DNA of 12,609 bases from Opitutus sp. GAS368 (GCA_945861645.1 CAMAVZ010000049.1:1-12609); one strand, 5' to 3'. Positions 1 through 12,609 are shown, numbered from the stretch's first letter. The notes: generated by a model not told the origin, from the letters alone. Numbers and translations are program-made.

Positions 1-31
1 CCTATGAACTCAAAACTAATTACAATGAGTA

Positions 32-66
32 AGACGGCGTTAATTCAGAAACGTTGAATTTATTTT
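32..66 (-). promoter_or_regulatory. Putative ECF-sigma-type promoter B (AAC-N16-CGTCT), firing leftwards out of the window
   Basis: Minus strand reads AAAATAAATTC-AAC-GTTTCTGAATTAACGC-CGTCT. It is 24/35 identical without gaps to the copy at 235-269, with identity concentrated in the A-tract, AACGTTT and CGTCT. AAC/CGT with ~16 nt spacing is the typical ECF sigma pattern. Confidence 0.5.
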
Positions 67-85
67 AAAAAAAATTCAGCCAGCT

Positions 86-125
86 AAAATATTAAGGGGC
101 CCCTCTTGCGAGCGGCCCCTTAATA
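86..125 (-). terminator. Intrinsic terminator-like hairpin
   Basis: Perfect 12-bp inverted repeat TATTAAGGGGCC (90-101) / GGCCCCTTAATA (114-125), then one mismatch and 3 more bp. The loop reads GCAA (GNRA) on the minus strand, and the stem is followed by TTTT only on the minus strand. Confidence 0.75.
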
Positions 126-185
126 ACCTAAAACACCTAAAACACCTAAAACACCTAAAACACCTAAAACACCTAAAACACCTAA
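126..185. repeat. Tandem repeat (ACCTAAAAC)x6 plus partial ACCTAA
   Basis: Six exact 9-nt units start at 126, 135, 144, 153, 162 and 171, with a partial unit at 180-185. TAATAAC flanks both sides (121-127, 183-189). Confidence 0.97.
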
Positions 186-234
186 TAACTACCAACAATG
201 TTTCGCTATGAACGATTACTGTTATCACGGGGAT

Positions 235-269
235 AGACGCAGTTTAGCGGAAAACGTTAGAATTATTTT
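235..269 (-). promoter_or_regulatory. Putative ECF-sigma-type promoter A (AAC-N16-CGTCT)
   Basis: Minus strand reads AAAATAATTCT-AAC-GTTTTCCGCTAAACTG-CGTCT. A second copy lies at 32-66. Confidence 0.5.
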
Positions 270-448
270 CCGAAATTTATTAGCGAAAATTTTTCACGTA
301 TAAATTCTATAATTATTTTACTAATAATACTTTACAAATTATAAAATTGTATCGATTTGCTCGATTTAGCAAGCGCGGTGTCATAAATCTGTATACTAGG
401 AATCGCATTTTAAAGCTTTTCGCCGGCCGCCATCCGCTCGCTAGACCT

Positions 449-1633
449 TCACAAATGAATTTCTGCTGGCAGAACCAAACCAGCATGGGCCTTGGTCGGC
501 GAAGCCTTGAGTGGATACCGAAATAGCTTACCCTCAAAATTCTTAAAGATCACTTCATCATCGGTGATCGCCTGCACGTAATCAGGATTGATCGGCACTT
601 TGCCGCCGCCGCCAGGAGCATCGATGACATATTGGGGTACCGCGTAACCAGTCGTATGCCCACGGAGTGCACGGATAATTTCAATGCCCTTGCGCACATC
701 CACTTTGAAGTGGGCCCCGCCGGTGATCAGGTCCATTTGGTAAATATAATAAGGCCGCACCCGCATGCGGAGCAAGCGGTGCACGAGCGCCTGCATCACC
801 TCGGCGTCATCGTTGATGCCTTTCAGCAATACGCTCTGGTTACCCAGCGGCACCCCCGCAAAAGAAAGTCGCTCGCACGCTGCTTTTAATTCCTGGGTCG
901 CTTCCTTGGGGTGATTGATGTGCAGGCTCATCCAGATCGGGCCATGCTTCTTAAAAATTTCCGCCAACTCTGGGGTAATGCGCTGCGGTAAGAAAACTGG
1001 GATGCGTGACCCAATACGAATAAACTCCACGTGCTTGATGGCGCGCAGCCGGCCGAGCAAGTGATCGAGCTTCTTATCCGACAACAAAAGGGGATCCCCA
1101 CCCGACAAGAGCACATCGCGCACCTCGGAATGCGCCTCAATGTAACGGAGCGCCTGCTCGTATTCAGGATGAAAATTATAGTCCTGCGCGTTACTCACGA
1201 GCCGACTCCGCGTACAATAGCGACAATAAGCCGCACAGCGATCGGTCACTAAAAACAACACCCGATCGGGATAGCGATGCACGAGACCGGGCACGGGAGA
1301 ATGTTCGTCCTCGCCCAGAGAATCTAACATCTCCCCAGAAGAAACCACCATCTCATCGCTTCGTGGAATGACCTGCTTACGAATAGGACAGTGGGGGTCA
1401 GTCCGATCGATGAGGTTGAAAAAATAAGGTGTGATCGCGAGCGCGAGCTTCTCTTTGGCGAAAAGACAGCCGGCTTTCTCCTCGGGCGTCAGCGTTAGGT
1501 AACGCTCCAATTGCTCGATCGTGGTCAACCGATTCTTCAGCTGCCAAGACCAGTCCTGCCAATCAGATTCAGGAATATGTTGCCACAGCCCCTGGCCTTC
1601 AAACCAAGTGAAGCGGTCGTCAATGTAGGCCAT
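449..1633 (-). CDS. kamA: KamA-family radical SAM protein (lysine 2,3-aminomutase)
   Basis: 394 aa. Contains the radical SAM CxxxCxxC motif (CAAYCRYC), HRYPDRVL, LLSGGDP, RIGSR, NQSVLLKG and the PLP-lysine motif DAPGGGGK. Asp is retained in YQMDL and VIDAP, as in lysine-specific enzymes. Confidence 0.9.
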   Translation of the reverse strand: MAYIDDRFTWFEGQGLWQHIPESDWQDWSWQLKNRLTTIEQLERYLTLTPEEKAGCLFAKEKLALAITPYFFNLIDRTDPHCPIRKQVIPRSDEMVVSSGEMLDSLGEDEHSPVPGLVHRYPDRVLFLVTDRCAAYCRYCTRSRLVSNAQDYNFHPEYEQALRYIEAHSEVRDVLLSGGDPLLLSDKKLDHLLGRLRAIKHVEFIRIGSRIPVFLPQRITPELAEIFKKHGPIWMSLHINHPKEATQELKAACERLSFAGVPLGNQSVLLKGINDDAEVMQALVHRLLRMRVRPYYIYQMDLITGGAHFKVDVRKGIEIIRALRGHTTGYAVPQYVIDAPGGGGKVPINPDYVQAITDDEVIFKNFEGKLFRYPLKASPTKAHAGLVLPAEIHL

Positions 1634-1798: not shown

Positions 1799-2971
1799 AT
1801 GCCAGCGACCAATCCCGCTATTCTCGCCCTAGAAGACGGTAGCATATTCCGTGGCGTAGCCTTTGGGGCCAACGCCGCTATCGCCGGCGAGTGTGTTTTC
1901 AACACCTCCATGACCGGTTATCAGGAGATCATCACTGATCCCTCTTACTTCGGCCAGATCGTGACCATGACCGCGCCCCAGATTGGCAACTATGGGGTCA
2001 ACGGTGAGGATGAGGAATCCCGCACCCCGAAATGTTCTGGCTTGGTGGTACGCGAGATCTCCCCGATCGTCAGCAACTGGCGCAGTAAGATGTCCCTCGA
2101 TGAGTACTTAAAAAAGTATGATATCCCGGGCATTAGCGAAATCGACACGCGCGCCTTGACCAAAAAGCTCCGCGTCGACGGCGCGATGAAATGCTGCCTC
2201 AGCACCCTGCCGTTGAGCGACGCTGAGGCGGTCCAGCGCGCCAAAGCCTGGCACGACATGGCCGGCAGCGATTACGTTAAGGATGTCACCTGCCAATCGC
2301 CCTACCTTTGGGGCGCGGATGACGCGACGCGGCATAATACCCAGTATTTGCCCGTCGGTACCCGCGGCGGCACGACGGTCACGCCAGCCAAGAAATTTAA
2401 AGTCGCCGCCTTCGACTACGGGGCAAAATACACGATCTTCCGCAAACTGGTTCGCCATGGTTTCGAAGTACAAGTATTTCCCGCGACCGCTACCGCGGAA
2501 CAAGTGCGCGAATACGGCGTGGATGCGGTATTTTTATCCAATGGCCCGGGCGATCCAGCGGCCCTACCTTACATCCACCAGACGGTTAGCCGGTTGTTAC
2601 CGGATTACCCCATCTTCGGGATCTGCCTCGGCCACCAGATGCTCACGCACGCCCTCGGCGGCACAACTTTTAAACTCAAATTTGGCCACCGCGGGGGCAA
2701 CCAACCGGTGAAAAATCTAGAAACCGGCAAAGTTTCAATTACCGCCCAGAATCATGGCTTTGCCACCGACCCAAAATCGCTGGAGAGCCGCCGTGCGGTC
2801 GTGACTGAAATTAACTTAAATGACCAAACAGTAGAAGGCCTGCGCCATAAGGAACTGCCGGTATTTAGTGTGCAGTATCATCCGGAGGCCGCCCCCGGCC
2901 CAAATGACGCCGATCCCTTGTTTGAGCATTTCTACCAGCTCGTAGCGCAACGGAAGGCCGGGAAGATTTAG
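1799..2971 (+). CDS. carA: Carbamoyl-phosphate synthase small (glutaminase) subunit
   Basis: 390 aa. Motifs LALEDG, FNTSMTGYQE, PQIGNYG, IDTRALT, LSNGPGDP, GICLGHQ (catalytic Cys) and QYHPE (catalytic His/Glu). Confidence 0.98.
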   Translation: MPATNPAILALEDGSIFRGVAFGANAAIAGECVFNTSMTGYQEIITDPSYFGQIVTMTAPQIGNYGVNGEDEESRTPKCSGLVVREISPIVSNWRSKMSLDEYLKKYDIPGISEIDTRALTKKLRVDGAMKCCLSTLPLSDAEAVQRAKAWHDMAGSDYVKDVTCQSPYLWGADDATRHNTQYLPVGTRGGTTVTPAKKFKVAAFDYGAKYTIFRKLVRHGFEVQVFPATATAEQVREYGVDAVFLSNGPGDPAALPYIHQTVSRLLPDYPIFGICLGHQMLTHALGGTTFKLKFGHRGGNQPVKNLETGKVSITAQNHGFATDPKSLESRRAVVTEINLNDQTVEGLRHKELPVFSVQYHPEAAPGPNDADPLFEHFYQLVAQRKAGKI

Positions 2972-2981
2972 TTTCCTTAGC

Positions 2982-3728
2982 TTAATCCCCAAGCAATTGC
3001 TCGAAGCGTTTGGCGTCTTCTGGCGTATCGACTCCAATCGTCGGATCATCCGTTGCGGCAATCGCTATGGGATAACCATTCTCCAGCGCTCGGAGTTGCT
3101 CTAATTTTTCGATCTGCTCCAACTGGCTGGGCGGGAGCGCTACAAACTTTTCGAGAAAATCTGCCTTATACGCATACAGCCCAAGATGCTTGTAACATGG
3201 GTTTCCCGCCACCCAAGCGTCATCAATCGTCAGGCCAAGATCGCGGGAAAAGGGCATCCGGGACCGAGAAAAATACATCGCTCGCCCGGTTTGGGACATG
3301 ACCACCTTGACCTGATTCGTATTAAAGAAATCCACCACGCGTTTAAAGGGAGTGCAGAGCGTCGCCATTGGGCAATCCCCCTGAATCAGACGGGCCAGCG
3401 CCTGCAACTGCCCGCCGCTCACCAGTGGCTCATCCGCCTGCACATTCAGCACATAACTGGCCCGCACCGTGCGATTGGCTTCGGCCATCCGGTCGGTGCC
3501 ACTGGGGTGGTCAGCCGAGGTCATAATCGTCCTAAAACCCGCCCCATCGAGGCACTCGGCTAATAATTTATCATCCACCGCAAACCAGAGGGGATAATCA
3601 GGCGCCTGGGCCGTTATTCGCTCAGCTACCCACAGCACAAGTGGCTTGCCTTTAATTAAATGGAGAAGTTTTCGCGGAAAGCGAGTGGACTCCAAACGGC
3701 AAGGTACAATAATGGCAAAGGCAGGCAT
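2982..3728 (-). CDS. kdsB: 3-deoxy-manno-octulosonate cytidylyltransferase (CMP-Kdo synthetase)
   Basis: 248 aa. Motifs PCRLESTRFPRK, SGTDR, NVQADEP, YFSR, HLGLYAY, LEQIEKLEQLRALENG and GVDTPED. Confidence 0.96.
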   Translation of the reverse strand: MPAFAIIVPCRLESTRFPRKLLHLIKGKPLVLWVAERITAQAPDYPLWFAVDDKLLAECLDGAGFRTIMTSADHPSGTDRMAEANRTVRASYVLNVQADEPLVSGGQLQALARLIQGDCPMATLCTPFKRVVDFFNTNQVKVVMSQTGRAMYFSRSRMPFSRDLGLTIDDAWVAGNPCYKHLGLYAYKADFLEKFVALPPSQLEQIEKLEQLRALENGYPIAIAATDDPTIGVDTPEDAKRFEQLLGD

Positions 3729-3810
3729 ACGGGGGTCTTTAAGATTGCAGGGGGGGGCGCGACCAGCTTTTTAACATTTCCTTTTAACCCGACGACCTAG
3801 CCCAACCGCA

Positions 3811-4107
3811 ATGGAAAAGAACGACCCAACCGCCGCCACCACCTTGGTGAAGGAGCTGCTGGTGCTAAACAAAATGGGGATCCACGCTCGTCCGGCAGCG
3901 ATGATCGTACGCGTAACGAACAAATTTAAGTCGGATGTTTTCGTCGAAAAAGATGAAGAACAAGTGAACGGAAAAAGCATTATGGGGCTCATGATGCTGG
4001 CGGCCGCCAAGGGCAGCAAAATCAAATTTTTGGCGACCGGCGAGGATGCCGATAAAATGCTCACCGAACTCGAAGCCCTGTTCGCCAAAAAATTCGAAGA
4101 GGCCTAA
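3811..4107 (+). CDS. ptsH: HPr-family phosphocarrier protein
   Basis: 98 aa. Has the GIHARPAA phospho-His motif and the NGKSIMGLM regulatory Ser motif. Confidence 0.95.
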   Translation: MEKNDPTAATTLVKELLVLNKMGIHARPAAMIVRVTNKFKSDVFVEKDEEQVNGKSIMGLMMLAAAKGSKIKFLATGEDADKMLTELEALFAKKFEEA

Positions 4108-4136
4108 ACCCGCCACCCGCTCCTCCGCGTCGATCC

Positions 4137-4160
4137 AGCCGGTCTCAGACCGGCTTTTTT
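4137..4160 (+). terminator. Rho-independent terminator of ptsH
   Basis: AGCCGGTC-TCA-GACCGGCT stem running into T6 (4155-4160), 30 nt after the HPr stop. Confidence 0.85.
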
Positions 4161-4164
4161 GGGC

Positions 4165-4971
4165 TCAAGCGCCTAGCCTGAAAAAATCCCGGGCATTTTG
4201 CGTGGTCACCGCCGCCAACTGCTCGGGGCTCACCCCAAACATTTCGGCACAATAGTCGGCCGTGTCCCGCAAATAGGCCGGCTCATTGGGTTTCCCGCGA
4301 TGCGGCATGGGCGTGAGGAAAGGAGCATCCGTCTCGATCATCAACCGCTCCAAGCCCTGTAACCGAGCGGCCGCCCGGACATTCTCTGCTTTTTTATAGG
4401 TGATCACGCCCGTGAATGAACCATAGGCCCCGCGCTGCACCAGCTCAGCCATTTCCGTCGGCCCTTCGCTAAAACAATGAAAAACGACCCGGCGCCAATC
4501 GACGCCAGCGGTCTCAATCATTTGGACACACTCCGGAAACGCCCCGCGTGAATGCACTACGACCGGACAACTGAGCGCCTTCACCACCGCCAACTGCTCG
4601 GCGAACGCTGACTGCTGCCAACTGAAAACCTTCGTCGCCTCGATTGGTTCTTGCGGCAGATGAAATCGGTCGAGCCCAATTTCCCCCAGCGCCACCGGCC
4701 CAGGTGCACTCGACCCACTCCAAAACGGCCTTAATTGGGCAACCCGCTCAGCCCAATCCGCCCCCACGTTACAGGGATGTAAGCCCACGGAATAACACAC
4801 CACCCCTGGATGCTGCTGAGCTAAATCACGGTACAATCCCCAATCATCAGTATCTGTGCCAATAGCCACCAATTGCGCTACCCCAGCAGCTCGCGCGCGA
4901 TCTAGAACTGCCGGCAACTCGCCACTGCGGACGAATGCATCGAGATGAGTATGCGTATCGATTAAGCTCAT
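4165..4971 (-). CDS. tatD: TatD-family metal-dependent hydrolase/DNase
   Basis: 268 aa. Motifs IDTHTH, GLHP, GEIGLD, VVHSR, FHCFS, IETDAPFL and NEPA. Confidence 0.95.
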   Translation of the reverse strand: MSLIDTHTHLDAFVRSGELPAVLDRARAAGVAQLVAIGTDTDDWGLYRDLAQQHPGVVCYSVGLHPCNVGADWAERVAQLRPFWSGSSAPGPVALGEIGLDRFHLPQEPIEATKVFSWQQSAFAEQLAVVKALSCPVVVHSRGAFPECVQMIETAGVDWRRVVFHCFSEGPTEMAELVQRGAYGSFTGVITYKKAENVRAAARLQGLERLMIETDAPFLTPMPHRGKPNEPAYLRDTADYCAEMFGVSPEQLAAVTTQNARDFFRLGA

Positions 4972-5024
4972 AGATTGATTGCGATCAGACGAAAGGTCGA
5001 TGCTCAGCCGATGACATCATTAAA

Positions 5025-5052
5025 TAAACCTTAAACCCTAAATCTTAAAACT
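5025..5052. repeat. Degenerate heptamer tandem TAAACCT TAAACCC TAAATCT TAAAACT
   Basis: Four adjacent TAAAnCY units, read directly from the sequence upstream of tatD. Confidence 0.7.
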
Positions 5053-5117
5053 ATTCCCCCCTGCTTTCTCCGCGTCCGCTGCGTTTCACTTGAGTTGTTT
5101 AAGATAAAAGTGAGCCT

Positions 5118-5207
5118 CTAGCGAGGTTGGGATTTTTTTCGGCCCATCAAATAACAGGTCAGAAAAATAATCAGTGCAATGATTGCCTCCGCCCCCGCGG
5201 CGAACAT
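5118..5207 (-). CDS. Putative 29-aa single-pass membrane peptide (MFAAGAEAIIALIIFLTCYLMGRKKSQPR)
   Basis: Hand-translated from ATG 5207 to TAG 5118. A hydrophobic run is followed by basic RKK. It starts 15 nt after the CBS gene stop on the same strand and is too short for the ORF track. Confidence 0.5.
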   Translation of the reverse strand: MFAAGAEAIIALIIFLTCYLMGRKKSQPR

Positions 5208-5222
5208 TCCGAGACTTTTCTT

Positions 5223-5666
5223 TCAGGTGGAAAGCCCACCCGCAATATACTGCCGCAACGATTCTGCTTCCGCGCGGTGGAGGTTAGCCACCCAACGCGA
5301 TACATCCCCGATTGAAATAACGCCAACTAAGCGACCCGCCTGCATCACGGGTAAATGCCGACAGCGCTTTTCGGTAAAAATATCCATCACCTCTTGCACC
5401 GTAGCACTTGGCTCAACCGTGAGCACATCGGCCGTCATCACCTTGGTGATGGGCGTGAGTTCAGGATCGAGGCTAGCGCCCACGACGCGGCGCAAAACAT
5501 CGCGCTCCGTAAAAATTCCGACCAGTCGCAGGCCATTCATGACCAACACTGAGCCGACCTTGTGCGTGTTCATTTCCTGCACGGCCTCGGCGACCGTCAC
5601 GGTGGAGGGGATCGTGTAAACGCCGCCGCCTTTCTGCTCTAACAAGGTAGTAATAGTCGTATTCAT
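5223..5666 (-). CDS. CBS domain pair protein
   Basis: 147 aa with two CBS motifs: VGSVLV..LVGIFTERD and RHLPV..LVGVISIGD. Confidence 0.93.
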   Translation of the reverse strand: MNTTITTLLEQKGGGVYTIPSTVTVAEAVQEMNTHKVGSVLVMNGLRLVGIFTERDVLRRVVGASLDPELTPITKVMTADVLTVEPSATVQEVMDIFTEKRCRHLPVMQAGRLVGVISIGDVSRWVANLHRAEAESLRQYIAGGLST

Positions 5667-5690
5667 GGGGTGATGAATTGGCCTGAGGTT

Positions 5691-5720
5691 ATAATAGCCC
5701 CGTCCAGTAACAACAGTAAA
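5691..5720 (-). promoter_or_regulatory. Possible sigma70-like promoter for the CBS gene (TTTACT-18-TATTAT)
   Basis: The hexamers lie in the 63-bp hrpA-CBS gap. A direct repeat AGCCCCG at 5696-5702 and 5721-5727 lies alongside them. Confidence 0.3.
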
Positions 5721-5729
5721 AGCCCCGCA

Positions 5730-8700
5730 TTATTTGCGAAATAATTGATCGAGGGAGCCTAGGCTCTTGAGCGGCGCGCCTTTTTCCCCTGATGTAGCCG
5801 GAGCCGGTTTCAGAGTCTGAGCGGGCGCCGGCCGCGCCGAACCGCTGGCCTGATCTTCCGTCAGCGACCCACCTAATTCTGCCAGAGCGCGCGTTAATCT
5901 CACCGCAGACACCGGCTCGGCGGTGCCCAACTCCTGCGCAAATAAACTGATCCGAAACTCCTCCACCAACCACCGAAAATTATCGGCGGCCTCAGCCGCC
6001 AAAGGGGCTACCCCCACCGAGCCAACGCGAGCGCCGCGGCTTTGGCCAGAAATTCGCCGCGCCGCGGCGACAAAGGGCGCCAGTTCTTGCAGGCGCTGCG
6101 CATCCTTCGCGGCATCGCGCTTCCAACGCTCAGTGCGAGCCTGCATGCCGCGCAAATACCGCGACACCTGCTGGAGCCGACTGAAGGGCATTGATCGCAA
6201 AAATTCTGGGGGCAAGAGCACCGCTAAATCGTCCGCTAAACCAGGGTATGCCGGTCGCTGCGTTTCTAAAGCCAAGCGCAGGGTAAAAATTTCCTTGAGC
6301 CACTCGCTGAGCTTCGGCACTAGGCCGCGCAAATCTTGCTTAGCCTGAGCAAGCTCGCGCTCAAAAACTATCTTCGTCAGGAGATAGGGCGCTCCCGAAA
6401 ATTGGTCCGTGCTACGCGCCTCATCTCCACGGCTTAATTTACCTCTCATCCGCTCCGGATCACAGACCCAACGGCGAATGGAGGCTAAAGCGTCGACCTG
6501 CATGGCCTCAGGGGTGATCAGCGTTACCGCTAAAGTGCCCAACATCCGCAACGCCTTAAGATCTTTTTCTAGCCACCCCAAATCAAAGCGTAATTGAATT
6601 TCAAATAATTTCCGTAAGCCCTCGCGTGTGGCCGTCGCCGCTTCTTCGGGCGTGGCAAATAACCGCACCGCTACTCCTGCCGCCACCGCCTTCAGGCCAG
6701 GATAAGCATCCACCGGCACGCCGTAATGTTCGCTCACCGCAATTTTTTCGGGTAGGTCGCCGTATTTCCATTCGGTCATCGCTTCCCCTTCCCACTTCGT
6801 TCGCGCCGCCCGCCACGCCGCGTTATCCACCCGCGCGGCTTGCTGACTGACATCACGTTGCCGCGAATGGAGCAGCGCCTGCAATTCTCCCAAGTCGCGA
6901 CTAGCGCCCAGCACCTTAGCCTGACTATCCACTACCTCCACCCGCACGCGCAGATGATCCGGGAGTAATTTATCCGTCCACATCGCCGGATTAATCCGCA
7001 CCCCCAACCGCGGGGATAGCAATTCAGCCAACGCGCTGGCCAGCGTGGGCGCGGGCATCCGGCCACTCACCAGCGCCAAGTCCCTCGTTAGTTGCTGCGC
7101 CGTCTCCGTCAGGGGAATCAAAGCACGGCGCTGTTCCTTGGGTAGCGCTTTCAGCATCAACTCAACCTTTTCACTCAAATGCCCGGGCACCGCCCAATCG
7201 AGCGCGGCCGCCGTCAGCGCGGCCGCTTCCGCCAGATTTACGCGAACAGTAACCCCGTCGGCCTCTTGCCCCGGCTGATAAGTATACGCCAACGGCAGCA
7301 CACAATTATCCACCGGGAGTTCCGCGGGGAAAGCTTCTGCGCTATGTTCGGTCTCGGCGGGCGGACGCAAGTCCGCTTCGCCCAGAAAAAGAAATTTAGG
7401 CGCGGTCAGCTGTTGATGCCGCACAAAGTCCACCATTTCGCCGACGCTACTAATCCCAAGGGGCGGAGAATTTTCTGGGGGCACGGCTCCCCCCGACTCG
7501 GCGGAACGATCGCTGCGACTGACCGGCAGCAGATACTGCGCATAGAATCGATAGAGCGCTTCATCGATGTTCATGTAACCGGCGCTACGGGTCCGCGTGA
7601 GGATCGTTTCGGTGTGCTCCCGCAGGCGGCGGTTGTGCGCCAAAAAATCAAACGGCCAGGTGATCGTATCTCCCACGAGACCTTCCCGAATAAATATCTC
7701 GGTTGCGTGGCTGGGATTAATTTTTCCATAACTCGCGGAACGCGTCGCCAGTTCCAAGTTGTAGAGCCGGCGCCGCTCCTTCACCAACACGCGACCCGCC
7801 TCCGCGCTCCAGAATGGCTCGCTATGCGCGACGCGGAGGAGGTGCGCCCCCAGATCGAGAATCCATTGCGGATCGATCCGCGCGCAGGTCCGCGCATATA
7901 TTCGCGCCGTCTCCATGACTTCAGCGGCCATCAGCCAACGCGCGACCCGCTTAGCCGGAACCGGGCTGGCCGGCGATTTTGTCGCAGGACTTTTCTTCCG
8001 CGGATCATTCCGTTCAAATAGCACCGAGCCCGGAAAAATTGCCACCCGCCGATCATGAGCAGCGTGATAATCCCCCTCCTCCGCCCGCGTGGCAATATTG
8101 CCCAACAATCCAGCTAAGATGGAGCGATGAATTGAGCGATACGCGGGTGTCGCCAGAGCGAAATCGGAAACCGCAGGCGGGGCGGATCGTCCCGATTTTT
8201 TGGCCGCGGGGCGGGCAGACCCTTCGTCTACGGCGGGTAGGCCGTCATATACCGACGTCCACGCGAGATTTTTTCTCTCCCGCAACGTGTCCTCTAACTG
8301 CCCATAAACATCACGCCATTCGCGCATCCGCATAAACGATAAAAAGTGCGCGGTGCAAAATTTCCGCAACTTGCCGAGCGTCATTTGCTCAAACTCATCA
8401 TGATAGCTCTCCCAAATCGCCAGCAGCGTTAAAAAATCAGAGTCCGGGTGCGTAAATCGCCGGTGGGCCGCATCGGCTTTCTCTTTCAAATCCATCGGTC
8501 GCTCCCGGGGATCCTGAATACTCAAGGCCGCGGCGATAATTAAAACTTCGCGCAGCGCTTTTTCCTGGCTCGCCTGCAGGATCATGCGACCGACCGTCGG
8601 ATCGACGGGTAAATGCGCCAACTCTCGCCCGAGCTCCGTCAGCCCGCCAACCTCATCAATCGCCCCGAGCTCGTGCAATAAGGCATAACCAGCGCGTATG

Positions 8701-10019
8701 CCCTTAGCCGGCGGGGCATTGAGAAAAGGAAACTCCTCAATGTCGCCCAGCCCAAAGGCCTTCATCCGCAAAATCACATCCGCCAAATTACTGCGCTGAA
8801 TCTCCGGCTGGGTGAACCGGGGACGTTCAAGATAATCCTGCTCCGAATATAACCGAATGCACACCCCATCACTCACGCGACCGCAACGACCCTTGCGCTG
8901 GTCCGCGCTGCTTTGCGACACCGGCTCAACCGGCAACCGCCGCGTCCGACTCTGCGGCGTGTACCGACTAAAGCGCGCTAACCCTGTATCGATTACAAAA
9001 CGAATGCCGGAGATGGTCAGTGAGGTCTCGGCAATATTCGTCGCGACGATCACCTTTCTTTTGTGGGAGGACGAAAATACCCGCTGCTGTTCGGCGTTGG
9101 TCAGGCGGCCAAATAAAGGCACGACTTCCACCCGCGACCCACGGCGTCCCTCAATCAAATCCCGCGTTTCGCGAATATCCCGCTCCGTGGGCAAGAAGAC
9201 TAAAATATCGCCGGCGTTACTTTCCTGCAACACACGCTCCACCGCCTCCACGGCCGCCTCAATGTAGGTGTAGTCTTCAGCTCTGATTTTCTTTGGGCCG
9301 GATGAACCCTCCCGTCGAGCCGACGAGCTTTTCAGCTCAGCCGGCCGGTCCGCCATAGCCTTGGCGACGGCGGAAGGATTCGCCCTACCTGCTCCCATCT
9401 CCTCCAGCGGCGCATAAATCACCTCGACCGGATAAACTCGGCCGGAGACCTCAATGATCGGCGCCCCGTCGAACGCTTGGGAAAAAGCTTCGGTGTCAAT
9501 GGTGGCCGAGGTGATGATAATCTTCAGTTCCGGCCGCTGGAGCCGCAGCCGACGCAGATGCCCAAGAATAAAATCAATATTCAGCGAGCGCTCGTGCGCT
9601 TCATCGACGATGATCGTGTCGTAAGCCCGCAGATCTGGATCGGCCTGCAATTCGGCGAGCAGCATACCGTCCGTCATGAATTTAATTACCGTGTCGGCGG
9701 AAGTCTGATCAGCGAAGCGAATTTTACAACCGACCTCACGGCCCAACGACACGTTGAGTTCCTCTGCCACGCGTCGCGCCACTGACGTAGCCGCCACCCG
9801 CCGAGGCTGTGTGCAGGCAATCTGACCACGCTCGCCGCGCCCCGCGACCAAACACATCTTGGGAATTTGCGTCGTTTTGCCCGACCCCGTTTCTCCCGCC
9901 AGAATCAGCACCTGATGATCACGAATGGCGGCAATAATTTCGTCCGCGCGCGCACTGATCGGCAACTCGGGCGGATACTCGATCCGGAAGGGCCAAGGTT
10001 TGGGGGTGCGGGGTGGCAT
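5730..10019 (-). CDS. hrpA: ATP-dependent DEAH-box RNA helicase HrpA
   Basis: 1429 aa. Motifs GETGSGKTT, TQPRR, MTDG, DEAHERSLN, SAT, ATNIAETSLT and QRKGRCGR, plus the HrpA-type C-terminal WLVEEFRISLFAQELGT. Confidence 0.96.
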   Translation of the reverse strand: MPPRTPKPWPFRIEYPPELPISARADEIIAAIRDHQVLILAGETGSGKTTQIPKMCLVAGRGERGQIACTQPRRVAATSVARRVAEELNVSLGREVGCKIRFADQTSADTVIKFMTDGMLLAELQADPDLRAYDTIIVDEAHERSLNIDFILGHLRRLRLQRPELKIIITSATIDTEAFSQAFDGAPIIEVSGRVYPVEVIYAPLEEMGAGRANPSAVAKAMADRPAELKSSSARREGSSGPKKIRAEDYTYIEAAVEAVERVLQESNAGDILVFLPTERDIRETRDLIEGRRGSRVEVVPLFGRLTNAEQQRVFSSSHKRKVIVATNIAETSLTISGIRFVIDTGLARFSRYTPQSRTRRLPVEPVSQSSADQRKGRCGRVSDGVCIRLYSEQDYLERPRFTQPEIQRSNLADVILRMKAFGLGDIEEFPFLNAPPAKGIRAGYALLHELGAIDEVGGLTELGRELAHLPVDPTVGRMILQASQEKALREVLIIAAALSIQDPRERPMDLKEKADAAHRRFTHPDSDFLTLLAIWESYHDEFEQMTLGKLRKFCTAHFLSFMRMREWRDVYGQLEDTLRERKNLAWTSVYDGLPAVDEGSARPAAKKSGRSAPPAVSDFALATPAYRSIHRSILAGLLGNIATRAEEGDYHAAHDRRVAIFPGSVLFERNDPRKKSPATKSPASPVPAKRVARWLMAAEVMETARIYARTCARIDPQWILDLGAHLLRVAHSEPFWSAEAGRVLVKERRRLYNLELATRSASYGKINPSHATEIFIREGLVGDTITWPFDFLAHNRRLREHTETILTRTRSAGYMNIDEALYRFYAQYLLPVSRSDRSAESGGAVPPENSPPLGISSVGEMVDFVRHQQLTAPKFLFLGEADLRPPAETEHSAEAFPAELPVDNCVLPLAYTYQPGQEADGVTVRVNLAEAAALTAAALDWAVPGHLSEKVELMLKALPKEQRRALIPLTETAQQLTRDLALVSGRMPAPTLASALAELLSPRLGVRINPAMWTDKLLPDHLRVRVEVVDSQAKVLGASRDLGELQALLHSRQRDVSQQAARVDNAAWRAARTKWEGEAMTEWKYGDLPEKIAVSEHYGVPVDAYPGLKAVAAGVAVRLFATPEEAATATREGLRKLFEIQLRFDLGWLEKDLKALRMLGTLAVTLITPEAMQVDALASIRRWVCDPERMRGKLSRGDEARSTDQFSGAPYLLTKIVFERELAQAKQDLRGLVPKLSEWLKEIFTLRLALETQRPAYPGLADDLAVLLPPEFLRSMPFSRLQQVSRYLRGMQARTERWKRDAAKDAQRLQELAPFVAAARRISGQSRGARVGSVGVAPLAAEAADNFRWLVEEFRISLFAQELGTAEPVSAVRLTRALAELGGSLTEDQASGSARPAPAQTLKPAPATSGEKGAPLKSLGSLDQLFRK
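9296..9389. repeat. Degenerate inverted GTAG-REP-like pair with a nested palindromic element, inside hrpA
   Basis: Minus strand reads GGTAGGGCGAATCCT[30-nt insert]CCGGCTGAGCTG (9389-9333). Without the insert it is 18/27 identical to plus-strand 9296-9322. The insert contains the imperfect palindrome TCCGCCATAGCCTTGGCGACGGCGGA (9349-9374). Confidence 0.6.
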
Positions 10020-10054
10020 GACAGGTAAATTAGAGGTTCCGTGCGGCGCCTAGA

Positions 10055-10600
10055 ATGGCAAAGTCAAACCGCATGCCCAACCCCGCTCTCTCGTCCGCTG
10101 AAAAATCCCTCCAGCGCATTCTTACAATCTCGCGGCTCAACGGCTGGAGCGTGATCGTCATCTCCGCGCTCGGCAGCTTACTGGCTCTGGCCATTGGAGA
10201 TCTCCTGAGCGTCTTAATCGGCCTGCTCGTTTTAGCGGCCGGCCTCATGGAAGTTCGCGGACACCAGCAATTGAAACGACGCGACCCCGCCGGCCTGACC
10301 TTGCTCGGGCGTTCCCAATTATTTCTGCTCGCCGTCATGCTGGTCTACTGCGCCGGCCGGCTTGGGAGCTTCGATGCCGACACGGCCTTAGCGAGCCTGA
10401 CCCCTGACCTGGAAGTAATGCTCGCGGAAGCCGGTCTCGATAAAAGCTCCCTTTTACCCTTAGTCCGCACGGCGTTTTTCGCTCTCTATAGTGTCGTCGC
10501 TGCCATTACCCTCATTTACCAAGGAGGCCTCGCGCTGTTTTATCGGAGTAAAATCAAACTTGTCACCGAGGCCCTGACCGCCCCGCCGCCGGCATCCTAA
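10055..10600 (+). CDS. Hypothetical integral membrane protein (start may be ATG 10073)
   Basis: 175-181 aa with about four long hydrophobic segments. It fills the gap next to hrpA without overlap. No family recognised. Confidence 0.8.
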   Translation: MAKSNRMPNPALSSAEKSLQRILTISRLNGWSVIVISALGSLLALAIGDLLSVLIGLLVLAAGLMEVRGHQQLKRRDPAGLTLLGRSQLFLLAVMLVYCAGRLGSFDADTALASLTPDLEVMLAEAGLDKSSLLPLVRTAFFALYSVVAAITLIYQGGLALFYRSKIKLVTEALTAPPPAS

Positions 10601-10602
10601 TC

Positions 10603-10748
10603 GCACCGGACCTTCCAGAATTTTTGCCACAAAAAACAAAAAAGGGAACGACCGCGGGTGCAGCCCGCAATGCGCCTATAGGCGCGCGGAACATTTTCCG
10701 AGGCAAGACAGACAGTTTTTGTGTTTTTCGTGGCCAACCCTCCGGTGC
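10603..10748. repeat. Nested inverted-repeat element
   Basis: Outer perfect 8-bp IR GCACCGGA (10603-10610) / TCCGGTGC (10741-10748). Inner IR 10626-10643 / 10717-10734 has 16/18 matches. Three internal hairpins. Confidence 0.7.
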
Positions 10749-10761
10749 CTTGGTCGCTGTC

Positions 10762-10818
10762 TTGTCGGGGCTGGTTACAGGCGATCCCAGGCAATCGCTT
10801 GCAAGCAAGCTCCTACAA
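10762..10818. repeat. Inverted doublet of GTAG-family REP sequences
   Basis: Intact copy on the minus strand, TGTAGGA-GCTTGC-TT-GCAAGC-GAT (10817-10794). Degenerate partner on the plus strand, TGTCGGGGCTGGTTACAGGCGAT (10763-10785), 18/24 identical with one gap. Confidence 0.75.
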
Positions 10819-10833
10819 CCTACCCTAAGCCCC

Positions 10834-11475
10834 ATGTCCAAGGAACGCTACATCGCAGCCAAACAAAAATGGGCCGAAAAACAACTGGCCCGCGGCTTCA
10901 AACCGCGCGTGGTCGCCGCGACCGACCGCCTGCCGCCCGGGCAGAAACTCACGACGGGATTTCCCGTGCTCGACCTCGGCGTGCAACCTGAGATTGCCCT
11001 GCAGGATTGGACCCTGACCGTCGATGGTCTCGTGGAAAAACCAACCGTCCTTTCTTGGGCACAATTTAATGCCCTCCCCCAAGTCACCGATGAAAGTGAT
11101 TTTCACTGCGTGACCACTTGGAGCAAGTACGACTGCACTTGGAGCGGCGTGGCGTTCACCTCCCTCTTCGAACTCGTTCAACCGAAACCGGAGGCGCAAT
11201 TTGTTTATTTCACGAGCTACGATGGCTACTCGACGAATGTCCCCCTCGCGTACTGTCTCGATGACGACGTGCTCGTGGCGACCCAATTCGGCGGCGCCCC
11301 GGTCACCCGTGAGCACGGTGGCCCCGCCCGCATTATCATTCCCAAACTCTACGCCTGGAAGGGCGCAAAATTTGTCAAAAGCATCACCTTCCTCGCCGAG
11401 GATCGACTTGGCTTCTGGGAAGTTCGCGGCTACCATAACCACGGCGACCCTTGGAAAGAAGAGCGGTACGCCTAA
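10834..11475 (+). CDS. Sulfite-oxidase-like molybdopterin-binding oxidoreductase (YuiH-like), 213 aa
   Basis: Motifs RLPPGQ, FPVL, DFHCVTTWS (Mo-ligand Cys), EHGGPAR, LYAWKGAK and GFWEVRGYHNHGDPWKEERY. I moved the start to ATG 10834 because the ORF-track extension from TTG 10624 runs through repeat elements. No Tat signal is visible. Confidence 0.9.
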   Translation: MSKERYIAAKQKWAEKQLARGFKPRVVAATDRLPPGQKLTTGFPVLDLGVQPEIALQDWTLTVDGLVEKPTVLSWAQFNALPQVTDESDFHCVTTWSKYDCTWSGVAFTSLFELVQPKPEAQFVYFTSYDGYSTNVPLAYCLDDDVLVATQFGGAPVTREHGGPARIIIPKLYAWKGAKFVKSITFLAEDRLGFWEVRGYHNHGDPWKEERYA

Positions 11476-11590
11476 GGTCCGTTCTAAAATCCGCTGATGC
11501 TCACTAGGGACCGTCATTCCGATCTGGCCGCGAAGGGCTTAGCCCTAAAAATCACGACGAAGCGCGCGCGGCCAGTCACTCATTAATTTT

Positions 11591-12609
11591 ATGAGCCCCC
11601 CTTTTTTTCCTCAAGATATCATCATTAAAAAACGCGATGGCGGCAGCTTAACCGAAGCGGAAATTAAATTCTTCGCGCAGGGAGTAACCGATGGTCGTTT
11701 TGCAGATTACCAGGCGACCGCGCTCCTGATGGCCATTTTTCTCCGCGGGATGACCCCGCAGGAAACCGCTTGGCTCACTGATGCCATGATGCGCTCAGGT
11801 GAAATGATTGACCTGCAATCGATCGCGGGCGCAAAAGTAGATAAACATTCTACGGGAGGCGTCGGTGATAAAGTATCCCTCATCCTCGCCCCGCTCGCGG
11901 CGGCTTGTGGCCTCAAAGTTCCGATGATGAGCGGTCGCGGTCTTGGTCACACCGGCGGGACGCTCGACAAACTGGAAGCCATCCCCGGCTTTCGCGTCAT
12001 GCTCAGCGTAAGCGAATTTCGGGCCATTTTGGAAAAAGTTGGCGCCGCGATGATTGGCCAGACGCCGCAAGTGGTCCCCGCGGATCGCAAACTTTACTCC
12101 CTGCGGGATGTCACCGGTACGGTCGAGTGCATTCCACTCATTTGCGCTAGCATCATGAGCAAAAAACTGGCGGAAGGGATCGACGCCTTAGTCCTCGATG
12201 TAAAATTCGGAAAAGGAGCATTTATGAAACGCAAGGAGGACGCCCTGACGCTTGCTCGGGCGATGGTGGCCGTGGGTCGCGCTGGGGGCAAACCGGTGTG
12301 GGCGCAACTCACCGCGATGAACCAACCGCTCGGTCGCGCCGCGGGCCACACCACCGAGGTGATTGAATCGATTGAGTGTCTCCAAGGCCGCGGCCCCGCC
12401 GACTTAATGGCAGTAACCTACGCGCTTACCGGGCATATGCTGATCTTGGGGGGAGCGGCTAAAAATGCCGCGGAGGCCCAAAGGCAAATGTCCGCCGCCA
12501 TTACCTCCGGCGCTGCGCTCGAGAAGTTTCGGCAAATGTGCATCGCCCAAGGCGGCGATCCCCGCGTGATCGAAGATTATAAATTGCTACCCACCGCCAA
12601 AAAACTTTT
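11591..12609 (+). CDS. deoA: Thymidine phosphorylase / pyrimidine-nucleoside phosphorylase, 3'-truncated by the window edge
   Basis: Hand-translated: MSPPFFPQDIIIKKRDG..., DKHSTGGVGDK, VPMMSGRGLGHTGGTLDKLE, ADRKLYSLRDVT, ASIMSKK, LDVKFGKGAFM, AQGGD. The frame stays open to 12609. Confidence 0.95.
   Translation, partial: MSPPFFPQDIIIKKRDGGSLTEAEIKFFAQGVTDGRFADYQATALLMAIFLRGMTPQETAWLTDAMMRSGEMIDLQSIAGAKVDKHSTGGVGDKVSLILAPLAAACGLKVPMMSGRGLGHTGGTLDKLEAIPGFRVMLSVSEFRAILEKVGAAMIGQTPQVVPADRKLYSLRDVTGTVECIPLICASIMSKKLAEGIDALVLDVKFGKGAFMKRKEDALTLARAMVAVGRAGGKPVWAQLTAMNQPLGRAAGHTTEVIESIECLQGRGPADLMAVTYALTGHMLILGGAAKNAAEAQRQMSAAITSGAALEKFRQMCIAQGGDPRVIEDYKLLPTAKKL

Follow-up and report, generated by a model that had tools for sequence, protein, structure and literature searches.

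The stretch of DNA analyzed here, called the window throughout, comprises 12,609 nucleotides of Opitutus sp. GAS368 (GCA_945861645.1, CAMAVZ010000049.1:1-12609) and forms the first 12.6 kb of contig C49 in an assembly (G000) of 2.3 Mb that is 84% complete. Close to its left end, the minus strand carries P1, a gene for a predicted small RNA (sRNA). The P1 promoter (231-263) consists of a -35 element TCTAACGTTTT, with AAC at 258-256, a 16-nt gap, and a -10 element GCGTCTATC, with CGTCT at 239-235. The predicted RNA of ~143 nt would span 86-228, its 5′ end being placed from the -10 box and its 3′ end from the U tail. Its 5′ stem-loop (194-223), which is helix 1 of the family model described below, has 6+3 base pairs (outer arms 223-218 and 199-194, inner arms 215-213 and 205-203) and a UUCAUAG loop that lies within GUUCAUAG (213-206). 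A perfect tandem array follows at 126-185, reading UUAGG, then (UGUUUUAGG)x6, then U; it contains six exact TGTTTTAGG units at 180-127 and was reported by Tandem Repeats Finder with period 9, 6.7 copies, 100% matches, and a score of 120. The terminator (86-123), recognized by sequence reading and RNAfold, is a 14-pair stem with one G-G mismatch (123-110 and 105-92), a GCAA loop (109-106), and a UAUUUU tail (91-86). RNAfold placed the terminator hairpin in both the minimum-free-energy and centroid structures and left the array unpaired in the centroid; the folding z-score of the whole RNA was just -1.89, with 10 of 200 shuffled sequences folding equally well. No ATG occurs on the minus strand within 269-86, and no GGA within 228-86. 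A first-pass annotation, made from the sequence alone, had described an AAC-N16-CGTCT motif at 258-235, a hairpin at 223-194, six exact repeats, a GCAA-capped stem, and the absence of ATG, all of which were recovered when we re-read the minus strand. Its account of a complete gene overlooked a second promoter (55-32) and the GTTCATAGG segment at 9-1, both of which belong to a neighboring paralog. A simple consensus scan for promoters and terminators listed neither the P1 promoter nor the P1 terminator on the minus strand.

This neighboring paralog, P2, has its promoter at 26-60 on the minus strand (AAC 55-53, CGTCT 36-32), and its 5′ part (1-25, minus strand), which includes GTTCATAGG, is truncated there by the end of C49. 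C16 shares an identical 149-nt overlap with C49 but was not joined to it, and P2 runs on into C16 (L001 ~4897-4784, minus strand), where GUUCAUAGGUUUGCUUGGUGUUAGGUCAUGCA is followed by a G+C-rich hairpin and UUCAUGAUUUAU, giving it the canonical family core. A third paralog, P3, lies on contig C4 (~80445-80330, minus strand; L101 526-647, minus strand) and has the core GGGUUAUUUGGUGUUAGGU, a promoter of the same type, and a clean intrinsic terminator. Long and short genes frequently occur as tandem pairs in the family, and in the window P1 is the long member and P2 the short one. We lean, with modest conviction, toward P1 (258-86, minus strand) being an independently promoted, terminator-ended sRNA gene and a diverged paralog of an Opitutaceae family, predicted to regulate C/A-rich translation starts by pairing. 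As side observations, three P3-like matches are present in the related genome G019, and a TPP riboswitch (RF00059, 63.3 bits) lies ~230 nt 3′ of P2 on C16 (L001 4441-4554, minus strand), ahead of a TonB-dependent receptor gene. L087 shows the same order of sRNA, riboswitch, and receptor, as do G015 and G019 on inspection by eye.

Typical family members have a dedicated promoter, a 5′ stem-loop in the long forms, a single-stranded G/U-rich core GGUUUGCUUGGUGUUAGGU, and a hairpin terminator. The 21-mer TTGGTGTTAGGTCATGCAGGG, taken from the P2 core, occurred exactly in 87 stretches of a species-genome collection, and the titles of all 87 named Opitutaceae, Opitutia, Lacunisphaera, Oleiharenicola, Didemnitutus, Opitutus, or Verrucomicrobiota. 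Selection by the 21-mer fixes those 21 bases and not the flanking UUGUAGUUCUUACGGUUUGC, which nevertheless showed little or no variation across an alignment of 81 full-length genes. A covariance model, R1, built from this 81-gene alignment, matched 105 of the 151 Opitutaceae genomes searched, representing 42 of 63 genera; among the high-quality genomes the figure was 92 of 125. Two matches lying 150-250 nt apart were seen in many genomes. In the other families of the order, R1 matched 0 of 96 genomes. Over 64 full-length hits, GGUUUG.UUGGUGUUAGGU was conserved at 90% or more. Among 72 aligned hits, which include 20 loci picked for divergence and ~7 rows that are antisense matches of the near-palindromic terminator, 90.8% of cells were paired, compared with 71.5% after shuffling and 37-54% with slid partners. 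Each of the 25 modeled pairs had changes in both partners, and no shuffle out of 500 attained the observed values; double changes affected 12 of 12 pairs in helix 1, the 5′ stem-loop (84.2% of cells paired), and 13 of 13 in helices 2 and 3, the terminator. Rfam 15 gave no match above its gathering thresholds, whether for the window, for L001, or for three loci typical of the family, and matches in E-value mode were at chance level. Literature searches on sRNAs of Opitutaceae, Opitutus, and Verrucomicrobia, judged from the search listings, found none describing such an sRNA. We take the family to be a new one of a known kind, absent from Rfam 15 and from the literature searched.

P1 has the promoter, the 5′ stem-loop, the G+C-rich hairpin (variable in its loop across the family) with a U-rich tail, and a significant R1 score (window 73-234, minus strand; 33.1 bits, E 1.6e-5 over 195,541 bases or 1.8e-4 per genome; 25.9 bits with filters off). 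It lacks the core GGUUUGCUUGGUGUUAGGU, and the array aligns exactly at the core position. By hand count, 15 of the 19 core positions are retained in the aligned P1 stretch GGUGUUUUAGGUGUUUUAGGU, which also has 2 nt inserted, and the array unit equals GGUGUUAGG plus two extra U residues. Because the array replaces the core, we filed P1 as a diverged paralog rather than a canonical member. The conserved parts, the R1 score, the covarying helices, and the lack of an Rfam match all agree with the earlier suggestion of a self-contained sRNA gene from an unrecognized family, as far as sequence can indicate. Two coding readings were rejected. The array holds six two-codon frames, GUG-UUU-UAG, each after AGGUG, which we treated as a by-product of the repeat; frames from an AUG 3′ of the family core were inconsistent in length, and their residues shifted with compensatory stem changes.

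Conservation among close relatives distinguishes the parts of the gene from their surroundings. In a BLAST search with window positions 1-460 against 41 related genomes, five matched, G000 included; G016 (80% identity) and G004 (76%) carry both P1 and P2. We counted invariant columns in four aligned genomes (G000, L045, G016, and G004). In P1, 28 of 35 promoter columns were invariant, the variable ones falling in the promoter spacer, as were 37 of 42 ungapped columns of the 5′ part (228-186) and 37 of 40 terminator columns; the P2 5′ part had 23 of 25. The corresponding counts were 53 of 72 for the 3′ coding end of the upstream kamA-like gene, 15 of 24 for the P1-P2 spacer, and 95 of 166 for the kamA-P1 spacer, so that the P1 promoter, 5′ hairpin, and terminator were 80-93% invariant versus 57% for the kamA-P1 spacer. 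In the G004 terminator, the position of the G-G mismatch is an A-U pair. Orthologous P1 genes in G016, G004, L045, and L193-L196 retain the promoter, hairpin, and terminator.

The same comparison bears on an explanation without any separate gene, in which the region would be the 3′ untranslated region of the kamA mRNA, the hairpin at 123-92 the kamA terminator, and the array a chance microsatellite. The kamA-like gene (449-1633, minus strand) encodes a lysine-2,3-aminomutase-like radical SAM protein (Pfam LAM_C 3.2e-21, Radical_SAM 4.4e-14; context). P1 lies on the same strand 190 nt 3′ of the kamA stop codon, and the consensus scan found no other terminator between them. Six RNA-library runs contain parts of the stretch, and depths were read from their contigs. 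An X17 contig extends from ~296 through the promoter, P1, and P2 at a depth of 10.9, compared with 13.5-17.8 for kamA; at this kamA-like depth, which also suits a long kamA transcript, the signal is not separable from DNA carry-over or read-through. Run X16 covers kamA only. In X15, a 39-nt repeat unitig had a depth of 393.6 beside flanks of 3.8-5.4, and 165-386 was uncovered; these depths are contradictory, and we therefore did not use them as evidence of expression. Against a kamA 3′ untranslated region stand the conserved promoter before every paralog, even away from kamA (P3 on C4, G019, and tandem second copies), the kamA-promoter spacer as the least conserved segment, and an opposite-strand gene between kamA and the sRNA in 30 loci. 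We regard this explanation as highly improbable. More broadly, a kamA-like homolog was within the two nearest same-strand upstream open reading frames (ORFs) of a family sRNA in 42 fetched loci, and the recurrent neighbors of the family are kamA-like genes, SIMPL-like genes, and TonB receptors. ECF sigma genes were absent among the 12 largest neighbor clusters of family loci.

The number of repeat units differs between lineages. One UGUUUUAGG unit is present in L045 and in the metagenome contig L196, two in L195, one plus a partial unit in G004, L193, and L194, and two degenerate units in G016. As judged from these sequences, the six-unit array is private to G000, and seven P1-type genes elsewhere have 1-2 units; the six-fold repeat that had been listed among the parts of the gene is therefore not a feature of the family, and of the three elements whose conservation in relatives was to be checked, the promoter and terminator were conserved and the repeat was not. 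In another study, a related strain is represented by an RNA-library contig on which P1 is 37 nt shorter. In the DNA run X9, the repeat bins were 292-466 deep versus ~95 in the flanks, or ~3x, approximately the depth of a 60-nt array collapsed onto nine 31-mers, so that the six-unit form is not obviously an assembly artifact. The 2.3-Mb assembly has 35 tandem arrays with scores of 60 or more, of which just two combine a period of 7-12 with four or more copies and a match rate of 95% or above. This rarity, like that of the promoter motif, makes coincidence an inadequate account of the P1 features; besides the P1 array, the sole other perfect 9-bp array is CAGCCGCTA x 8.2 at C5:74311-74384. The break between C49 and C16 sits at the tandem array, which suggests copy-number heterogeneity in the sampled population.

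These observations fit a model in which the core was remodeled in the P1 lineage to (A/U)UAGG-UGUUUUAGG, and replication slippage would then have expanded the 9-nt unit in G000 into an array of six perfect copies. Whether the extra copies matter is the point on which two further readings differ. P1 could be a transcribed but drifting, neutral paralog left by duplication of an ancestral gene, with a core that decayed to a slippage-prone microsatellite of functionless copy number while P2 and P3 kept the working core. The replacement of the conserved core in P1, the variation in copy number between close lineages, the shorter form in the related strain, the assembly break at the array, and the canonical P2 and P3 in the same genome are all consistent with drift. 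Yet the P1 promoter, hairpin, and terminator are better kept than the neighboring coding end and spacers, the units retain the AGGUGUU of the family core, and the array is 100% perfect, and thus either recent or maintained. We consider neutral drift unlikely. Alternatively, the array may be a copy-number-variable seed cassette, in which slippage among 1, 2, and 6 units would tune valency toward receptor start regions or a protein with an RNA-recognition motif (RRM); to this proposal we give still less credence.

The promoter is shared across the family. Directly upstream of its members is TT[C/G]A[A/G][C/T]GTTT-N11/12-GC[G/A]TCTATC, and the consensus of 87 close members is ATTCAACGTTTT-N11-GCGTCTATC. 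Among 64 distinct full-length hits, 38 had a relaxed AAC form, 23 had TTGAGC or TTGAAT, and 3 were cut by the window fetched; in the distant genera, the -35 element is TTGAGCGTTT (20 of 64) or TTGAATGTTT (3 of 64), while neither the spacing nor the -10 element changes. The AAC hallmark on which an ECF reading rests is thus not invariant, and the ECF-type promoter previously proposed fits the form seen in this genus, with no sigma factor assigned. A genome-wide scan for AACGTTT-N12-CGTCT gave three matches in the assembly, all at sRNA genes, two of which are the same site on overlapping contigs; the regulon scan proposed earlier thus returned only sRNA genes. With a position weight matrix (PWM) from 87 family promoters, a scan of all of G000 ranked P1 highest (29.2 bits), and scored P2 at 24.8 and P3 at 15.6; two coding-region matches (19.2 and 17.8) outscored P3. 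In the complete Oleiharenicola genome (G041), AACGTT-N13-CGTCT occurred at two sites, both fronting a long and short tandem sRNA pair, and a control pattern occurred at 0. By these pattern scans, the motif is exclusive to sRNA genes in the two genomes scanned. A TT(A/G)TTCACAAAA box ~25 nt upstream of the -35 element was seen in many family genes (L009-L095) and is absent before P1 and P2; a regulator might bind there, or the box may belong to a divergent promoter.

G000 has ~12 ECF-type sigma genes. Upstream of 15 sigma-domain hits, four (on C103, C39, C46, and C56) had AAC-N15-17-CGTxx or a relaxed match, and a CGTCT -10 element close to the start codon was found at C46 only. This ECF sigma gene (C46:3708-4301) is itself preceded, 29 nt ahead of its start codon, by an AAC-N16-CGTCT promoter with a different -35 flank (GTAACC); the motif recurs in five of six orthologs, and the sixth has CGTCA. 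Cross-tabulation over 151 genomes found both the C46-type sigma and the sRNA in 99, the sigma only in 33, the sRNA only in 6, and neither in 13, a weak co-occurrence that is confounded by phylogeny. The surrounding locus (C46:3656-5084, L100) has matches to its ECF sigma at 62-83% identity in most family genomes, some with second matches at 45-61%. Genes for a 97-residue membrane-anchored protein and then a 163-residue protein without a Pfam match lie 3′ of the sigma gene, and the locus looks like an envelope-stress module.

Three further leads on the control of the promoter yielded no sigma assignment. First, P3 (R1 29.1 bits) is divergent, back-to-back, from genes for a FecI-like ECF sigma (C4 80729-81247) and a FecR-like protein, but the sigma adjoins P3 in G000 and G016, G004 matched the sRNA part alone, and the pair is not a conserved neighbor. 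Second, 61 intergenic AAC-N15-17-CGTC sites preceded unrelated genes, such as those for ribosomal proteins and a LacI-type regulator (translations read by eye), rather than a regulon. Third, sigma-28 (FliA) promoters, TAAA(G/T)TT-N11-GCCGATAA, are alike in -35 element and spacing, but the sRNA -10 element is GCGTCTAT, and sigma-28 was rejected on this ground. A clear sigma-28 -10 element, GCCGATAC or GCCGTTAC (GCCGATA / GCCGTTA), was present in two flagellin genes, one in G004 and one in G041, and was less clear in other copies. The flagellin genes of these genomes (L187, L191) have canonical sigma-28-type promoters and AAGGA leaders and lie beside a FliW-CsrA module.

Proteins that might act with the sRNAs were sought by Pfam. 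None of 4 genomes yielded an Hfq match, whereas control genomes did, and the analogy to MicA, RybB, and GcvB drawn by the first-pass annotation, which presumes Hfq, is therefore not supported. Two RRM_1 proteins per genome were present in 4 of 4 genomes. These results bear on the possibility that P1, or the family, is a protein decoy whose spaced (U/A)(A/U)GG motifs would titrate an RNA-binding protein, an RRM protein being the candidate, by analogy to RbpB and FopS. The family core is quasi-periodic in GG (CUUACGG-UUUGCUUGG-UGUUAGG), its single strand of ~19-45 nt is nearly invariant across genera and long for a pairing seed, RRM_1 proteins are present where Hfq was not found, and repeat words were ~30-fold over-represented relative to flanks in one RNA library, an unexplained excess. 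RbpB is reported to bind FopS sRNAs in Bacteroides thetaiotaomicron (PMC11697453). On the other side, binding is a prediction for any protein, and the expansion is private to one lineage. A sponge for an RNA-binding protein had been suggested earlier; for CsrA, such a role is improbable: P1 has no GGA, CsrA was found in three relatives within a flagellin-like/FliW/CsrA module, where flagellin leaders carry the canonical AAGGA, and neither CsrA nor flagellin was found in the 84% complete G000 assembly. The CsrA-sponge motifs of CsrB, RsmY, and RsmZ are GGA, mostly in hairpin loops; P1 resembles these RNAs in its array of short, regularly spaced G-rich motifs but differs in lacking GGA and in having an array that is unstructured in the centroid. 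As a whole, a decoy role seems to us rather improbable.

The pairing model makes predictions about targets. The unstructured G/U-rich stretch would pair with C/A-rich initiation regions lacking a Shine-Dalgarno sequence, the UUCAUAG loop, complementary to CUAUGAA start-codon contexts, would pair as well, and pairing would block initiation without Hfq, with TonB-dependent receptor mRNAs as the leading candidates. The target set comprised 1862 start windows (-40 to +20) from a crude ORF set of G000. First, CTAACAC, the complement of the core word GUGUUAG, occurred in 6 of the 1862 windows, 4 of which belong to TonB-dependent receptors, represented by 17 windows (Fisher 7e-8, for a word picked after the top matches had been seen and for receptor paralogs that are not independent); reversed and same-sense control words each found 0 receptors among 4 matches. 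Second, word enrichment near starts was modest, at 1.61x for 9-mers versus 0.57x and 0.46x for controls. Third, two receptors have the start context CUAUGAAC, to which GUUCAUAG is exactly complementary. Fourth, an energy test with the P1 repeat seed gave p 0.028 and ranked receptors 1, 9, and 14 of 1862 (reversed seed p 0.62), a top rank for a receptor start that speaks against neutral drift of the array; the P3 core seed gave p 0.009 with 0 receptors in the top 20, and control seeds p 0.27-0.95 with 0-1. Finally, for one receptor, the site in the orthologs of G016 and G004 differs by A>G and C>U substitutions, which a G/U seed tolerates. A long-seed RNAduplex scan of 110-nt windows was uninformative, with real and reversed seeds both at -29 to -37 kcal/mol.

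The receptor starts at C21:30061-30090, C43:10513-10474, C21:15935-15955, and C86:2062-2095 are C/A-rich and Shine-Dalgarno-less, with CUAACAC(N0-2)CCU-AUG; that at C21:30071 has CCUAACACC on either side of the AUG. In G041, the ortholog of the C21:30071 receptor, the best-matching one (71% identity), lies ~3.8 kb 3′ of the tandem sRNA pair (G041:C1:1003528-1003800 and 1007615).

Beyond the late choice of the word CTAACAC, several results weigh against P1 as an independently promoted pairing regulator of this kind. The R1 score of P1 is weak beside the 75.1 bits (E 1e-15) of P2, the R1 structure was set by hand, and the covariation alignment (A3) was fitted to R1. In other genera, AGC or AAT takes the place of AAC in 23 of 64 hits. 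The RNA-library contigs examined (X15, X16, and X17) did not show a discrete P1 transcript. In the energy test, the family core seed gave a Mann-Whitney p of 0.13 with 2 receptors in the top 20. Among 30 receptor start regions of G041 there was no word excess (3 complement versus 5 reversed matches), and 10 of 30 shuffled seeds gave receptor energies as good as those of the core. Moreover, without the core that the family conserves, P1 may have other targets or none. With support in G000 and none in G041, the receptor hypothesis is suggestive for this lineage only; the earlier proposal of pairing with C/A-rich, Shine-Dalgarno-less starts thus found some backing in G000 and no excess in G041, and TonB-dependent receptor mRNAs are suggested as candidate targets in G000.

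The remainder of the window (1799-12607) holds ordinary housekeeping genes by Pfam: CarA (1799-2971, plus strand), a KdsB-like cytidylyltransferase (2982-3728, minus), TatD (4165-4971, minus), an HrpA-like DEAH helicase with DUF3418 (5730-10019, minus), and a TrpD-like protein (11591-12607, plus). The ORFs at 10825-11517 and 10030-10338, both on the minus strand, had no Pfam match.

Several known systems resemble P1 in part. The sigmaE-dependent MicA, RybB, and MicL of enterobacteria are short, terminator-ended sRNAs that target outer-membrane protein mRNAs. P1 shares with them the AAC...CGT ECF form, in this genus, the short length, the terminator, and suspected outer-membrane targets; it differs in having no Rfam match, in a host where Hfq was not found, in an AAC that is not family-wide, and in the lack of a coding regulon with the motif. 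GcvB uses a G/U-rich unstructured region to pair with C/A-rich starts of many mRNAs, including those of amino-acid transporters. P1 is alike in having such a region but differs in its promoter logic, its lack of an Rfam match and of Hfq, and its receptor candidates. In both cases the likeness is one of form only. As a working model, the nearest parallel is the FopS family, a set of sRNAs encoded in multiple copies; they are reported to act near the start codon of mRNAs for SusC-like transporters, whose translation they block, and their host makes use of an RRM protein (PMC11697453). As reported there, FopS/GibS of B. thetaiotaomicron likewise come from several paralogous genes per genome, each RNA having a single-stranded seed ahead of its terminator hairpin, their host likewise lacks Hfq and has RRM-type proteins, and the FopS targets, like those predicted here, are starts of SusC-like TonB-dependent transporters without a classical Shine-Dalgarno sequence (PMC11697453). 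The same paper gives FopS a housekeeping promoter and a seed at the 5′ end (PMC11697453), unlike the dedicated motif of the present family, confined to sRNA genes, and its internal seed after a 5′ hairpin. FopS also belongs to another phylum; the family described here is known from sequence alone, and membership in FopS was rejected as its Rfam model was not matched.

The family is nearly invariant in sequence over dozens of genera and has several paralogs per genome, and its promoter motif offers a handle on an unassigned sigma factor or regulator. It is a candidate regulator, at the post-transcriptional level, of TonB-dependent receptors in freshwater and soil bacteria that degrade polysaccharides and in which Hfq was not found. 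The 1, 2, or 6 seed units constitute a natural experiment on seed multiplicity in an sRNA. If P1 is a neutral paralog, the family itself, of the P2 and P3 type, stays the useful result. If the array is a seed cassette, P1 would be an sRNA tuned by a variable-number tandem repeat, with a private promoter and sigma factor or regulator, in the first described sRNA family of the Verrucomicrobiota.

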